64,000 nt of DNA, taken from Rhodospirillaceae bacterium (GTDB lineage: Bacteria; Pseudomonadota; Alphaproteobacteria; Rhodospirillales; UBA2165). The stretch lies in the NCBI GenBank assembly GCA_018649725.1, contig JABIHH010000017.1, positions 40,469-104,468 on the forward strand, written 5' to 3'. Under the pieces are notes generated by a model. The model searched no databases, was not told where the DNA came from, and saw only the letters and a list, made by a program, of their open reading frames with translations. Positions 48,505 to 53,754 of this stretch are shown one piece after another. How positions within the stretch are numbered: the stretch's first letter is position 1; the number at the start of each line of letters is the position of its first letter. The translations under genes and the position numbers were made by a program.

Positions 48505-48665
48505 GTGGAAAAAATCCAAAATTGGATTTGTCATCCGAAGTTAGTCGCTCTAAGCTGTTAGCAGCGACGAATTGCTCACGATAAATTGATAAAAGCTTGA
48601 ATGAAGCCAGTTTGTTAGTGCGCATTTAAGAAGTATTTTAGATTTAGATAATGGGGAGAATAGTT

Positions 48666-49124
48666 ATGGCTAAAGCAAAGACAATGGATTCAGAGGGCGG
48701 CAATCTTTATGAACGCGCCAATGATATGTTTGTCAAAGTAACCGCCGGTGATACCGATGGTTCATATGAAGTATGCGAGGAACGCTGCCCGGCGGGGTTT
48801 GCTTCCAGGCCGCATATGCACACCGTTAGCCACGAAACTTTCTACGTCTTGAAAGGCAGTGCAACATTTCTGCTGGGCGAAGAAAAACATGACGGCAATG
48901 TTGGTGACCTGATCCACATCCCACCCGGCGTACCTCATCAGATGATTGCCGGCGATGACGGCGTATCTGTACTGATGGTTTATAGCCCGGGCACCACGGA
49001 AGCGATGTTCGCTGATATGACAGCTTTGACACCCGATGAGCGTGCGGATTTTAAAACCGGCGCTGCTGTTGCCGCCAAACACAACACCATTTGGGTTGAG
49101 AATTTTCCAGAAAACCAGGGCTAA
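48666..49124 (+). CDS. Cupin domain protein
   Basis: HMH...ETFYV...IPPGVPH. Confidence 0.85.
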   Translation: MAKAKTMDSEGGNLYERANDMFVKVTAGDTDGSYEVCEERCPAGFASRPHMHTVSHETFYVLKGSATFLLGEEKHDGNVGDLIHIPPGVPHQMIAGDDGVSVLMVYSPGTTEAMFADMTALTPDERADFKTGAAVAAKHNTIWVENFPENQG

Positions 49125-49185: not shown

Positions 49186-49611
49186 ATGCCAATAATCGAA
49201 CCAGGCGGCGGCCGTGTCTTTAAACGTATGAACGACATGACCGTAAAGGTTAAGTCATCCGACACCAATGGCACCTACGAGATGTGCGAAGAAAAATGCC
49301 CTCCAGGGTTTGAGTCTCGCCGTCACATGCATGCCAAGGATTTTGAAACCTTCTACATGGTGTCAGGCTCGGCGCGTTGGGAAGTCGGCGACGAGGTTGT
49401 TGAGGCGGTTAAAGGCCACACCATCCACATTCCACCGAATGTTCCGCATAAAGTAAAATCCGATGAGGGCTGCGAAATGATTTGCATCTTCGGCCCCGGC
49501 CAACAAGAAGGCCAGTTCGAAGAAATGAGCAACCTCACCGAAGAGCAACAACAGGATGACGCACTTAAAAAGTCCATCCTCGCCAAATACAATATGGTGC
49601 CGCTCGAATAG
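49186..49611 (+). CDS. Cupin domain protein (paralog of upstream gene)
   Basis: HMH...ETFYM...IPPNVPH. Confidence 0.85.
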   Translation: MPIIEPGGGRVFKRMNDMTVKVKSSDTNGTYEMCEEKCPPGFESRRHMHAKDFETFYMVSGSARWEVGDEVVEAVKGHTIHIPPNVPHKVKSDEGCEMICIFGPGQQEGQFEEMSNLTEEQQQDDALKKSILAKYNMVPLE

Positions 49612-49677
49612 GAGAGACCAAAATCATTAAAGAAAAAACCCGGTTTCTAGCGATTCCAGGTTTTTTTATCACCTCCT

Positions 49678-49734
49678 GTCACCCTGGACCTGATCCGAGG
49701 TCCAGTCTGGATTCCGGCTCAAGGCCAGAATGAC
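49678..49734. repeat. REP-like palindromic repeats, family A (degenerate)
   Basis: gtcaccctggacctgatccgaggtccag tctggattccggctcaaggccagaatgac. Confidence 0.7.
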
Positions 49735-49856
49735 AATTATTTCTCACACACCATAAGGAACCTTCAAACACGCATATTTGTAGATTTTCTGTTGGTAAAA
49801 TAGCCCGAAGAGAATTAGAAGTAGCTCATGTAAATTTGCCCTTTGAAGGAAGCAAG

Positions 49857-50513
49857 ATGCCAAATATTACGATGCTCGATATTGAAGAGCTTAAAAAAAC
49901 CAAACTCGGGGGTTTCATTAAAAAAAGCCTCCGCCACCGCGCACCCGATCCGGCTTTTCACGCCATGCTCGGCCATAACCCAGAGCTCTCAGCCTCTATG
50001 TATTTTGCCTGGGGGACAGTGTTTAATACCGGCTCCGTTGATCACAAGCTGAAAGAGATCATCCGGGTTCAACTGTCCCGAACTGCCGATTGTAATTATT
50101 GAGGCAATGTCCGTTCTGCTTCGGCGAAGCAGCAGGGATTAACAGAAGAACTTCTCGACGAAGGCATCGACAATTACGAAGCCTCCGATAAATTTACCGC
50201 GGCTGAGAAAATAGCGCTCAAATATTCCGATCTGATGGACACCGATCCGGATCTGATTGACGAAGCGTTTTATAATGAGCTCAAAGAGCATTATTCGACC
50301 GAAGAGATCGTCGAGCTGGGTGCTTTCATTGGCTTTAATATCGGCTACCACACTTGGTTTGGCACACTCGGATTTTATCCGATGTTTACGCCGGATGGCC
50401 GTTTGGTTGACCAGGAAGAATCAGCGCGGATTTATGGTGACAAGCCGATCTCGCACACCAAAGGGGCCATGCAGCGTGCCACCGAAAACAATTCAGATGA
50501 AGCGGCGGAATAG
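49857..50513 (+). CDS. AhpD/carboxymuconolactone decarboxylase-family protein, probable selenoprotein (CxxU, Sec82)
   Basis: ORFs 49836-50102 and 50235-50513 share a frame with one intervening TGA (50100-50102): ...SRTADCNY*GNVRSASAKQQGLTEE...; joined product is 218 aa. Confidence 0.85.
50106..50140 (+). promoter_or_regulatory. Candidate bacterial SECIS element
   Basis: Stem CTGCTTC/GAAGCAG with G-initiated loop GGC starting at +21 after the UGA, plus lower TCC/GGA pairing. Confidence 0.65.
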
Positions 50514-50524
50514 GAAAAAAACAA

Positions 50525-51064
50525 ATGGCGATAATTGACCCGATTCCGGTGGATCAACTCGATCCTGAGAAATTCCAAACCCGCTTGGAACTGGCCCAAG
50601 AATTAATGGTGCCAGACACCTTATTCATTCAGATCATGGCGCATGCGCCGGGCTATGGTGAGGCTTTGTTTGATGCGATGTATCAGTCACACGCCCTCGG
50701 CAATGTCGATCACACCTTAAAGGAAATCATCCGCGTGCGCTTGGCCCGTCTCGCCAAGGATGACTATTTCGGGGCATTGCGATCAAAGAAGGCTCAAGAG
50801 CTCGGCCTGACCGAAGCGCGGATTGAAGCTGGCTGTGGAGATTTCGCCGCCGACAATCAGTTCTCTGATGCGGAAAAATGGGCGCTGAATTACGCCAAGC
50901 TGATGTATACCGAGCCAAAGAAAGTGAACGCTGAATTTTACGATCTCGGTAAGACTTTCTTTAGCGAGCCGGAAATCATGGAACTCGGTGCCTTCATTGC
51001 CTTCCACTATGGCCTGCAAATATTCATGCGCACCTTGAAAGTGCTACCGCTCGACGCAGCTTAG
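50525..51064 (+). CDS. AhpD/CMD-family paralog lacking the redox motif
   Basis: VDHTLKEIIRVRLARLAKDDYFGALRS aligns with VDHKLKEIIRVQLSRTADCNYUGNVRS of the upstream gene. Confidence 0.85.
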   Translation: MAIIDPIPVDQLDPEKFQTRLELAQELMVPDTLFIQIMAHAPGYGEALFDAMYQSHALGNVDHTLKEIIRVRLARLAKDDYFGALRSKKAQELGLTEARIEAGCGDFAADNQFSDAEKWALNYAKLMYTEPKKVNAEFYDLGKTFFSEPEIMELGAFIAFHYGLQIFMRTLKVLPLDAA

Positions 51065-53754
51065 GGGTGGATGATCCCCTGAATGGTTGAGATCAGCTCT
51101 CTAATCTCGAACGGCTTCTGAATAAGAGGATAACCGTGGCCATACTCATCGGAAGACAATAAATTTTCCTGCGCATAGCCGGTCATAAGCAGTACTTTTA
51201 GATCCTTAATCTCGCTCCCGATCTGGCGCGCCAATATGGGGCCGCGGTTTCCATTGGGCAGCATTACGTCGGTCAAAAGCAGGTCTATGTTCGACCGAGT
51301 GGAATTGGCAATATCGATGGCTTTAGCACCATTGCCGCCATCAATGACTGCATAGCCGGAATTCTCCAATGCACTAACCATGATCTCGCGAACTTCCACA
51401 TCGTCTTCAATGACCATCACGGTTTCGCCTTTTCCACTCTGCTTCACTTGCTCTGACTCAACCTTGGAAACGGTGCTGTGCTCTTGTTTTGACATGGGAA
51501 GCAGCAAGCTTACCACTGTACCTTCCCCAACTTCACTTTCAATTTTGACGCCACCACCGGTTTGCTTGATAAAGCCATGAACCATACTGAGGCCCAATCC
51601 ACTCCCTTGGCCAAACTCCTTGGTCGTAAAGAAAGGCTCAAAAACTTTATCCAAAATATTATCTGATATGCCATGACCTGTATCTTTGACGGAGATCGCA
51701 ACATAATTGCCCGGCTCGAGATCATCATAAAGGCCGATAAGGTCATCGGTTTGAACATGATTGAAGGTCGAGATTTGCACCGCTCCGCCACCCGGCATGG
51801 CGTCACGGGCATTGATCACTAAATTGAGGATGGCATTCTCCAATTGATTTGTGTCGACCATGGCGGGCTTTAAATCTGAGATAGTCTGCAAATCAATCGT
51901 GACGGACTCGCCTAATGTGCGTTTCATCATACTCATAATTTCTGAAACGAGCCCGTGAACATCGGTAGAAACGGGTTCAAGATTTTGCTTGCGGGAGAAG
52001 GCGAGTAGACGTTTGGTCAAATCCGCCCCACGCATCGCGGTTTTCTTGGCCCGATCCAGACGCACCTTAAGCTTATCAATATCTGTCGGATCATCCTCCA
52101 TGAGGCTAAGATTACCGTGGAGGGCGGCGAGAATGTTATTGAAATCATGCGCAATACCGCCGGTCATCTGACCTACGGCTTCCATTTTTTGGGTCTGACG
52201 CAGATTCGCTTCATATTGATTTTTAAGCGTAACATCAGACAGATACATCATGGTACTGCCATCGGCGAAGCGTTGAGTCTTCATCTCAAAACTTTGATCT
52301 CCCCGACCAAATTCTCTAGAGCTACTTCGACTGCGAAATTTTTCCAACCGATCCGCAAGCCAGTCCTCATGGGACATCGTGCTCTTTATAGCAGGTCTAA
52401 CCGTAAGACGTCCTTTCGAAAACTCCTCATAGGATACACCGATCTCAATAAGTTCAGACATGATCGAGTTAAATTCAATATACCGACTATTATAGGTTAC
52501 CAATCTTTCATCAGGACCCCATAATGCTAATCCCATTTCCGAATTTTCAAGCGTTTCAAAGAATTGTCGCTCAACACTCTCAGCCCGGTCTTTCAATTCA
52601 ATCTCACCGGTTTCATCTTTCACGATACCGCGATAGCCGACAAAAATCTCCTCATCATCAAACATTGGTTTTGCTGAAATGCGTAAATGAGCGTGTTTAC
52701 TTCGGGCTTGGATTGCATTGTAGGTAATATCATGAACTTCCTGATGTTTCTCAAAATGCTCCTTGAGCGACCTCAATCCGTTCGGCATTTTATTTGGATC
52801 GACAAAATCCCATAATTTTTTTCCGATAAAAACATCGCTTTTCATATTTAGATTTTTGACCGGCGGAGAAAAATAAACAAAATTAAAATTCTCATCAGTT
52901 TCAAAAAAGCGATCGGCACCCAATTCGGCAAAATCTGTCGCCCGTTGTTCTTTTTCCCGAATTGAATTTTGCATTTCCACGCGTTCGGTAACATCTTTCG
53001 ATAAGAACGCAACCCGCGCAGGTTTTCCGTCCTCACCAATTACAGGATAACCAGACACCTCAACATAGCTATCACTCAGGCTGGAGAGAAAATCTAAATT
53101 GATGATGGGTTTACCCGTTTCAATTATCTCCTGAGCTTTCTGTTTTCTGCGTTCCGCCGATTTTGGATTGTCATAATCATAGATATTTTTTCCAACAACC
53201 TGATCAAGCGACACGCCAAAAATACTGCTCAAGGCATCGTTCGCGGCCAGGATGGTGCCGTCATTTTCAATCAAAACGGCACGGTCTTTCAGCGCATCCA
53301 AAAATGCCTGCAGATTAGCCTCGTTTGATTTTACTTCCTGCTGAAGTCGCTTCGTTTCCAATTTTGCTTCAGCATTGGCAATTGTTTTGGCAACAATTCT
53401 AGGTAAGATTTCGGTATAGACATCCTTGCCACTTTTAATAATGTAATCTGAAACACCAAGACCCAAGGCTTGGGCAGCAATCGTTTCACTACCTTGCGCT
53501 GTTATAAACACGATCGGGATATCCGGCGCGCTCGTCAAAAACTTTTTGGCTAACTCAAGCCCATCGCCATCCGGTAAATTGTAATCGAGCAGAATTAAAT
53601 CATAAATCTTTGTTGAGAAATGTTTTGTGCCCTCAGCACAATTGGCAGCGATATCCACCTCGTAGCCATGGATTCCCAAACTCGCGGCACAAAGCTCGGC
53701 CAATTGCAGGCTGTCTTCAACATATAAAATTTTATATGTCCGGTCTAATTTCAC
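51061..53754 (-). CDS. Hybrid sensor histidine kinase (REC-PAS x3-HisKA-HATPase-REC)
   Basis: N-terminal LLDYNLPD; QKMEAVGQMTGGIAHDFNN; FEPFFTTK; GLGLS; C-terminal LLTDVMLP. Confidence 0.93.
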   Translation of the reverse strand: MKLDRTYKILYVEDSLQLAELCAASLGIHGYEVDIAANCAEGTKHFSTKIYDLILLDYNLPDGDGLELAKKFLTSAPDIPIVFITAQGSETIAAQALGLGVSDYIIKSGKDVYTEILPRIVAKTIANAEAKLETKRLQQEVKSNEANLQAFLDALKDRAVLIENDGTILAANDALSSIFGVSLDQVVGKNIYDYDNPKSAERRKQKAQEIIETGKPIINLDFLSSLSDSYVEVSGYPVIGEDGKPARVAFLSKDVTERVEMQNSIREKEQRATDFAELGADRFFETDENFNFVYFSPPVKNLNMKSDVFIGKKLWDFVDPNKMPNGLRSLKEHFEKHQEVHDITYNAIQARSKHAHLRISAKPMFDDEEIFVGYRGIVKDETGEIELKDRAESVERQFFETLENSEMGLALWGPDERLVTYNSRYIEFNSIMSELIEIGVSYEEFSKGRLTVRPAIKSTMSHEDWLADRLEKFRSRSSSREFGRGDQSFEMKTQRFADGSTMMYLSDVTLKNQYEANLRQTQKMEAVGQMTGGIAHDFNNILAALHGNLSLMEDDPTDIDKLKVRLDRAKKTAMRGADLTKRLLAFSRKQNLEPVSTDVHGLVSEIMSMMKRTLGESVTIDLQTISDLKPAMVDTNQLENAILNLVINARDAMPGGGAVQISTFNHVQTDDLIGLYDDLEPGNYVAISVKDTGHGISDNILDKVFEPFFTTKEFGQGSGLGLSMVHGFIKQTGGGVKIESEVGEGTVVSLLLPMSKQEHSTVSKVESEQVKQSGKGETVMVIEDDVEVREIMVSALENSGYAVIDGGNGAKAIDIANSTRSNIDLLLTDVMLPNGNRGPILARQIGSEIKDLKVLLMTGYAQENLLSSDEYGHGYPLIQKPFEIRELISTIQGIIHP

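Follow-up and report, generated by a model that had tools for sequence, protein, structure and literature searches.

A predicted AhpD/CMD-fold selenoprotein gene, mis-annotated in public data and followed by a sister paralog, in a Rhodospirillaceae genome

The stretch of DNA analysed here, referred to as the window, comprises 64,000 nucleotides of a Rhodospirillaceae bacterium genome (contig JABIHH010000017.1) and carries a gene that we predict to encode a selenocysteine (Sec)-containing protein of the AhpD/CMD fold (Table 1). Under translation table 11 the locus appears as two open reading frames (ORFs), at 49836-50102 and 50235-50513. The original prediction had regarded these as a single frame broken only by a TGA, and translation of the complete gene bears this out, as it contains one internal stop, at codon 82, in the context C79-N-Y-[TGA]-G-N-V-R-S. 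The start codon, ATG 49857, was set by the conserved N-terminus M-P-N-I, and a Shine-Dalgarno-like stretch (GAAGGAAG) lies upstream of it at 49845-49852. Past the TGA the frame stays open for the 44 codons that precede the next ATG, and these, as had been claimed, can be aligned with the product of the paralogous gene directly downstream, which is 35% identical to the selenoprotein. The hairpin described 3' of the TGA, CTGCTTC-GGC-GAAGCAG, is also where it had been placed, with the first G of its loop (G50123) 21 nt past the A of the TGA. The combination of an in-frame TGA with a hairpin of this kind occurs once in the 64-kb window, against an expectation of zero.

Table 1. Features of the locus, in coordinates of the window.
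Feature	Position	Strand	Description
Predicted selenoprotein gene	49857-50513	+	218 codons plus TAG stop; AhpD/CMD fold
Codon 79 (TGT), Cys of the C-x-x-U motif	50091-50093	+	Invariant in 30 orthologs (alignment A6)
Codon 82 (TGA), read as selenocysteine	50100-50102	+	TGA in 194/194 loci, 151 distinct sequences
SECIS-type hairpin within the coding sequence	50116-50132	+	5' arm 50116-50122, loop GGC 50123-50125, 3' arm 50126-50132
Sister paralog	50525-51064	+	179 codons plus stop; D-D-Y-F in place of C-N-Y-U; starts 11 nt past the selenoprotein stop

Conservation of the TGA was assessed in three sets of loci. Searched in six frames, the window's own genome and 60 related ones yielded 34 orthologs (69-100% identity) with one in-frame TGA each, and in all 34 of them the TGA is codon 82. 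A scan of metagenomes returned 80 loci (66-91% identity) and a scan of one genome per species a further 80, with TGA at the codon-82 column in 80/80 loci of each scan. The three sets overlap, some loci of the genome scan being the same records as the related genomes, and distinctness was counted on gene segments of about 600 nt. No ortholog with Cys at this position was found among the 194 loci.

The frame is constrained before and after the TGA. Codons 1-81 have a mean ratio of non-synonymous to synonymous substitution rates (dN/dS) of 0.135, codons 83-126, which precede any ATG, one of 0.203, and codons 127-176 one of 0.134. Entropy in codons 93-126 is 0.66, 0.52 and 1.46 bits at codon positions 1, 2 and 3, respectively, and because the third position dominates, this segment bears the mark of a protein-coding frame. 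All 30 orthologs of alignment A6 have the same nine residues after the TGA, G-N-V-R-S-A-S-A-K. These comparisons indicate that purifying selection acts on the frame on both sides of the TGA.

We also examined whether the TGA could be a sequencing error, which the original prediction had named as a way in which it might fail. The codon is present in the 151 distinct sequences, which come from independent assemblies, and 49700-50906 is covered, with 0 differences, by a contig from a DNA run that carries no flag as a possible source. Metatranscriptome contigs, from three libraries of three studies, span the TGA and the hairpin (49999-50243, 50037-50301 and 50045-50299), again with 0 differences. 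Two further RNA-library contigs (50434-50584 and 50415-50584) run from the end of the selenoprotein gene into the paralog, with the proviso that a contig across two genes does not show a single transcript; parts of the stretch that are uncovered in RNA-library contigs carry no weight. Since the contigs from the independent DNA run and the RNA libraries match the window, an assembly error is ruled out, and there is a hint of expression.

The source genome (3.69 Mb, 88% complete) was searched for the genes of the Sec pathway, as the original prediction had proposed, and selA, selB, selC and selD are all present. selA (563.7 bits) and selB, which lies directly downstream of it (464.6 bits), both score above their curated cut-offs and contain no internal stops. 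selD reaches 409.3 bits, likewise above its curated cut-off, and the tRNA-Sec scores 73.6 bits, the gathering score being 47. TGA terminates 345 of the 1715 stop-to-stop ORFs of at least 300 codons in this genome, and is thus an ordinary stop codon elsewhere in it. Two other genes of the same genome have the appearance of selenoprotein genes. selD itself (G000:C86:71372-72301, minus strand, locus L010) has one in-frame TGA, in the context G-G-G-U-G-C-K. A second AhpD-fold selenoprotein gene (G000:C45, locus L212:337-993, minus strand) has 219 codons and the motif N-A-C-S-Y-U; its product scores 74.1 bits against TIGR01926 (cut-off 81.8) and is 29% identical to the window's protein. The ORF just upstream of this gene, on the same strand, has by eye the look of an HxlR-type regulator.

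Bacterial selenocysteine insertion sequence (SECIS) elements, by the criterion of the bSECISearch literature, are stem-loops shortly 3' of the UGA with a G in the apical loop. The stem here is of 7 bp and begins 14 nt after the UGA, and its apical loop contains the G; the GGC loop is found in 151/151 distinct sequences. Across these sequences stem pair 2 is U-A in 48, C-G in 91 and U-G in 12, so it pairs in every sequence; the change on its 3' side is non-synonymous (Gln/Arg). Stem pair 5 is U-A in 149, with U-G and C-G in one sequence each. Codons 83-92 have an entropy of 0.66 bits at their third positions, compared with 1.3-1.46 bits elsewhere, and in alignment A2 (80 distinct rows) columns 25-36, among them the silent third positions in codons 88-91, are invariant. 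None of 500 shuffles reached the covariation score of the structure tested, and six slid controls all scored lower, in a test where relatedness of the sequences can by itself give scores above those of shuffles. In selD and in the second AhpD-like gene of the same genome, too, a hairpin with a G-first loop lies at a similar distance from the UGA. In the RNAfold check that had been proposed the energy alone is not significant; conservation across loci and covariation are supportive. Judged by cross-locus comparison, and not by folding energy, the hairpin is more than chance.

We next consider which residue homologous proteins carry at the Sec column. A set of 1.84 billion representative proteins, searched exhaustively with HMMER, yielded 1138 matches at E <= 0.001, of which 150 are listed. 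Among the matches listed, 104 span the motif, with CxxC in 71, the paralog-type DxxF in 18, CxxW in 2 and other pairs in 13; the CxxC homologs among them are at most 46.8% identical to the query. The aligned residue is thus Cys in 71/104 of the spanning homologs among the matches listed, and TGA in all of the orthologs, which agrees with what the original prediction required of this column. Many of the remaining 46 matches listed are fragments that end at residue 81 or start shortly after residue 82. In a collection of 5.8 billion proteins, close relatives are mostly C-terminal pieces of 119-140 residues, and a few full-length entries show Trp at the Sec column. One of these, P0002, is the letter-for-letter table-4 translation of locus L026; because the DNA of L026 carries TGA, the Trp of this one entry is an artefact of gene calling. 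TGA is present in 160/160 DNA loci of the two collection scans. Public records thus hold the gene in pieces, or with its Sec codon rendered as Trp, and the splitting by annotation pipelines that had been anticipated is seen in the database relatives, most of which are fragments. Two distant homologs, P0204 and P0181, have C-x-Y-W and may be further AhpD-fold selenoproteins in which TGA has been called as Trp. Several entries of 300-370 residues (P0007, P0009, P0011-P0013 and others) match about half of the query at 61-70% identity and may be mis-called or fused forms.

The protein matches Pfam CMD (PF02627) with 33.9 bits, against a gathering cut-off of 23. An AlphaFold2 model built from an 89-row alignment is all-helical, with a predicted local distance difference test score of 96.1 and a predicted template modelling (TM) score of 0.90, and it places C79 and U82 at the start of a helix spanning residues 80-84. 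Foldseek relates the model to PA0269 (2ijc, 2o4d, 7xw1), Mlr4105 (3c1l), the debrominase Bmp8 (6ohi, 6ohj), several 'peroxidase-related' proteins and AhpD (6k40), all at probability 1.00. For the four proteins given here with PDB codes, target-normalised TM-scores are 0.64-0.81 and sequence identity is 13-23%. A profile search of PDB sequences likewise found PA0269 (E = 9.5e-27) and Bmp8 (E = 1.6e-23). C79 and U82 align with both CxxC cysteines of PA0269 and Bmp8 (C82 and C85 in Bmp8), so that the window's protein differs from both in having Sec at a column where they have Cys. Residues from about 175 to 218 have no counterpart in the 145-residue structures. An AhpD-type site combines a CxxC at the start of a helix with a Glu about 12 residues N-terminal to it and a His that follows it. 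Here Glu67 precedes C79 by 12 residues; it is the same in all 30 orthologs of A6 and shows almost no variation in alignment A3. AhpD of Mycobacterium tuberculosis uses the second Cys of its CxxC as nucleophile and the first as resolving residue; by analogy with these roles, Sec82 would be the nucleophile and Cys79 the resolving residue.

Selenoproteins of this general kind have been described before, and the statement in the original prediction that CxxU AhpD-like selenoproteins are known from marine metagenomes is correct. The Sargasso Sea selenoproteome includes an 'AhpD-like protein' (COG2128, CxxU) with 27 sequences and a 'CMD domain-containing protein' (Pfam02627, CxxU) with 4 (PMC1088965). 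That of the Global Ocean Sampling expedition lists 'AhpD-like 1', with 299 sequences and 902 Cys homologs, and 'AhpD-like 2' (pfam02627), with 70 sequences, and ranks the AhpD-like selenoprotein (COG2128 / TIGR01926) among the most abundant marine selenoprotein families (PMC2398784). A 2026 review names AhpD-like (TIGR01926), CMD-like (PF02627), AhpD-related (NF041238) and distant AhpD (NF041047) selenoproteins (PMC13188914), and BSepDB has an AhpD-like family page (PMC13326102). Because AhpD-like and CMD-like CxxU families have been published, the kind is established, and has been in print since 2005.

The window's protein resembles the CMD-like or 'AhpD-like 2' selenoproteins in its PF02627 score above gathering, its CxxU motif, its marine metagenome origin and its predicted thiol/selenol redox role, the comparison being one of descriptions. 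In the parts of these sources available to us, the family descriptions mention neither an obligate DxYF partner nor a 45-residue C-terminal extension; no literature search was aimed at the pairing. With the AhpD-like (TIGR01926) selenoproteins it shares the fold superfamily and the replacement of the second Cys of CxxC by Sec, but it scores only 26.8 bits against that model (cut-off 81.8). Its best NCBIfam match is NF053654, 'YciW-related (seleno)protein', at 62.4 bits for the selenoprotein and 49.6 for the paralog, with a cut-off of 310. Against NF041047, the GSU3128 family, it scores 21.4 bits (cut-off 110), and it is not listed for NF041238 (cut-off 175 bits) at E <= 0.01. Since all of the curated NCBIfam cut-offs are missed, and identity to the TIGR01926-like protein of the same genome is 29%, the curated-model scores set the protein apart as what appears to be a separate subfamily of AhpD/CMD-fold selenoproteins.

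The gene is accompanied almost without exception by its sister. Counting was limited to loci with at least 350 nt of downstream flank. Among the related genomes and metagenomes 99/99 such loci have the paralog immediately 3' of the selenoprotein gene and on its strand, with the motif DxYF in 96, DxYS in 2 and AxYF in 1; in the species-genome set it is found in 76/77, with DxYF in 75 and DxYS in 1. This gives 175/176 loci for both sets together, L206 being the sole locus with enough flank in which no paralog was detected downstream. The implied start of the paralog is a median of 15 nt from the selenoprotein stop, and several starts overlap that stop. The selenoprotein gene and its downstream sister thus form a two-gene module. 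The paralog retains the fold and the Lys-Glu/Arg framework, with Asp and Phe replacing Cys and Sec. In some lineages (L031, L039, L047, L073, L078 and L091 in alignment A5) it has a C-terminal tail, F-P-L-H-D-P-E-G-N-P-V-S-Q-E-E-S..., that resembles the F-Y-P-M-F-x-P-D-G-R-L-V-x-Q-E-E-S of the selenoprotein; the paralog of the window's genus is without this tail.

The relationship of the two proteins was addressed with a maximum-likelihood tree of 68 rows, made up of alternate rows of alignments A6 and A7 together with hand-chosen representatives (30 CxxC and 8 DxYF), using a quick search with Shimodaira-Hasegawa-like approximate likelihood ratio test (SH-aLRT) supports only. The Sec proteins form one clade (SH-aLRT 99) and the DxYF proteins another (86), and the two together are split from all 30 CxxC representatives (97). 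The branches of the Sec proteins are shorter than those of the paralogs. Since the clades are sisters, the pair goes back to a single duplication, with later loss of both redox residues in one copy.

The records in which the module occurs are diverse. The titles of the species-genome records are almost all those of metagenome-assembled genomes, mostly from Rhodospirillaceae/Rhodospirillales, Burkholderiales and other Betaproteobacteria, and unclassified Alphaproteobacteria, with a few loci from Nitrospinaceae, Tectomicrobia, Acidobacteriota, Xanthobacteraceae and Gammaproteobacteria. The sequencing runs that contain the window's stretch are seawater or marine metagenomes. An ortholog was found in 30 of the 36 other genomes searched from the window's own family and in 3 of 24 genomes representing the other 24 families of the order, where genome completeness varies and a missing ortholog means 'not found' and not absence.

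Other genes flank the module in the window. Just upstream of the selenoprotein gene are tandem cupin genes (Pfam Cupin_2) at 48651-49124 and 49186-49611 on the plus strand. The two cupins with an HMGL-like gene upstream are common to 11/33 related-genome loci and 9-10/80 metagenome loci, and because they are shared by so few loci (11/33; 9/80) we place the cupin genes outside the module. On the other side, a hybrid histidine kinase gene with two receiver domains and several PAS domains (51061-53754, minus strand) converges on the paralog and overlaps its last 4 nt with its own stop-side end; this kinase gene was conserved beside the module in 0/113 loci checked. Clustering of flanking ORFs over 160 loci revealed no conserved third gene, and the second-largest cluster, of antisense ORFs from 41 loci, was set aside as it looks like an artefact of G+C-rich sequence. 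Scans of the region for promoters and terminators gave counts at chance level.

Taken together, we consider it very probable that this is a real selenoprotein gene of the AhpD/CMD fold that is mis-annotated in public data, a prediction made from sequence. The reading of the product as a 218-residue selenoenzyme with Cys79 and Sec82 is supported, and none of the tests by which the original prediction could have been refuted has overturned it. If the TGA were instead a true stop, the locus would be a pseudogene or the product of a sequencing or assembly error, much as the table-11 split into 49836-50102 and 50235-50513 and the mostly fragmentary database entries would suggest; the same TGA in 151 distinct sequences from several phyla, the signature of purifying selection on both of its sides, and the match, without a difference, of contigs from three RNA libraries and an independent DNA run leave this explanation with next to no credibility. 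Constraint on codons 83-126, ahead of the ATG (dN/dS 0.20, with third-position variation dominant), and the invariant G-N-V-R-S-A-S-A-K in the 30 orthologs of A6 also argue against a split enzyme, in which the UGA would terminate and an 81-residue N-terminal protein would assemble with a separately initiated C-terminal one. The first ATG after the TGA does open a 92-codon ORF, and there is a sigma-70-like match at 50167-50194, though such matches are at chance level in the region; the hairpin, the Sec machinery and the CxxC homologs would all go unexplained, and we regard a split enzyme as very improbable.

A further explanation is readthrough of the UGA with insertion of a standard amino acid (Trp, Cys or Gly), by way of a variant code or a near-cognate tRNA. 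Here the complete Sec pathway, the use of TGA to end 345/1715 long ORFs and the lack of in-frame TGA in selA and selB weigh on the other side, as does the fact that the aligned residue of homologs is a redox Cys and that the hairpin is kept at silent sites. Trp does occupy the column in some database entries, but the one entry tested is a table-4 translation of TGA-bearing DNA. The unremarkable energy of the SECIS hairpin fits with readthrough of this kind, to which we nevertheless assign a very small chance.

Several observations weigh against the selenoprotein reading, or against parts of it. That Sec is incorporated at codon 82 we infer strongly, from sequence comparison and not from direct detection, and RNA-library contigs are not proof of transcription, as such libraries can contain DNA. 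The 25-nt hairpin has a predicted energy of -8.1 kcal/mol (z = -1.13), and 27/200 shuffles fold as well; for a 66-nt stretch z is -1.19, so that single-sequence stability is unremarkable. Only one base pair covaries often, and relatedness of the sequences inflates the shuffle control. The outermost pair is a C-A mismatch in 12/151 sequences and stem pair 3 is G-G in 9/151. RNAfold also proposed a lower helix (columns 16-19 with 43-46, and 21 with 41), in which pair 17-45 is unpaired in 41/80 and pair 21-41 in 65/80 sequences; as it is unsupported across sequences, this helix was dropped from the model. An Rfam scan of 49600-51200 at E <= 1 gave no match. At the active site, Arg86, four residues after U82, stands where PA0269 and Bmp8 have the post-CxxC His, and the assignment of Sec82 as nucleophile is a probable one, made by analogy. 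The two products of the module probably act together, with one active selenium site per pair, as a putative heteromer. The neighbouring genes give no functional hint, and apart from the paralog no neighbour is conserved across lineages.

With these reservations, the selenoprotein reading leads us to propose the following mechanism. SelB bearing Sec-tRNA(Sec) would be recruited by the hairpin 14-31 nt downstream (50116-50132), such that the UGA of codon 82 would be decoded as Sec. Sec82, in place of the second Cys of CxxC and at the start of a short helix, would be the probable attacking nucleophile. Cys79 would resolve the intermediate, giving a selenenylsulfide that would be reduced by a cellular thiol reductant. 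Candidate oxidants are a hydroperoxide, the sulfenate or disulfide of a partner peroxiredoxin, or another electrophile. The product would thus be a 218-residue thiol/selenol oxidoreductase, the first component of the two-gene module.

A more far-reaching proposal, which we offer tentatively and think rather less probable than its negation, is that the pair constitutes an obligate two-subunit selenoenzyme, comprising a strictly Sec-dependent AhpD-fold subunit and a 'pseudo-enzyme' paralog (C to D, U to F). The pair would travel among uncultured Alpha-, Beta- and Gammaproteobacteria, Nitrospinaceae, Tectomicrobia and Acidobacteriota, and the reaction could be something other than peroxide reduction, such as a Bmp8-like or deiodinase-like reductive dehalogenation.

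An AhpD-fold selenoprotein with CxxU will, as such, be no surprise to the specialist; what seems modestly new is the obligate dead-twin partner together with an apparently strict dependence on Sec. The gene appears to be widespread in uncultured marine, groundwater and soil bacteria, and with a model built from the 151 sequences, pipelines would annotate it correctly and selenoproteome counts in these lineages would rise. The constant pairing with a dead twin, and the lack of a Cys-form ortholog among the loci examined, would make this a system in which to ask why some enzymes insist on selenium, and it opens a second question of whether the catalytically dead twin serves as a structural partner.

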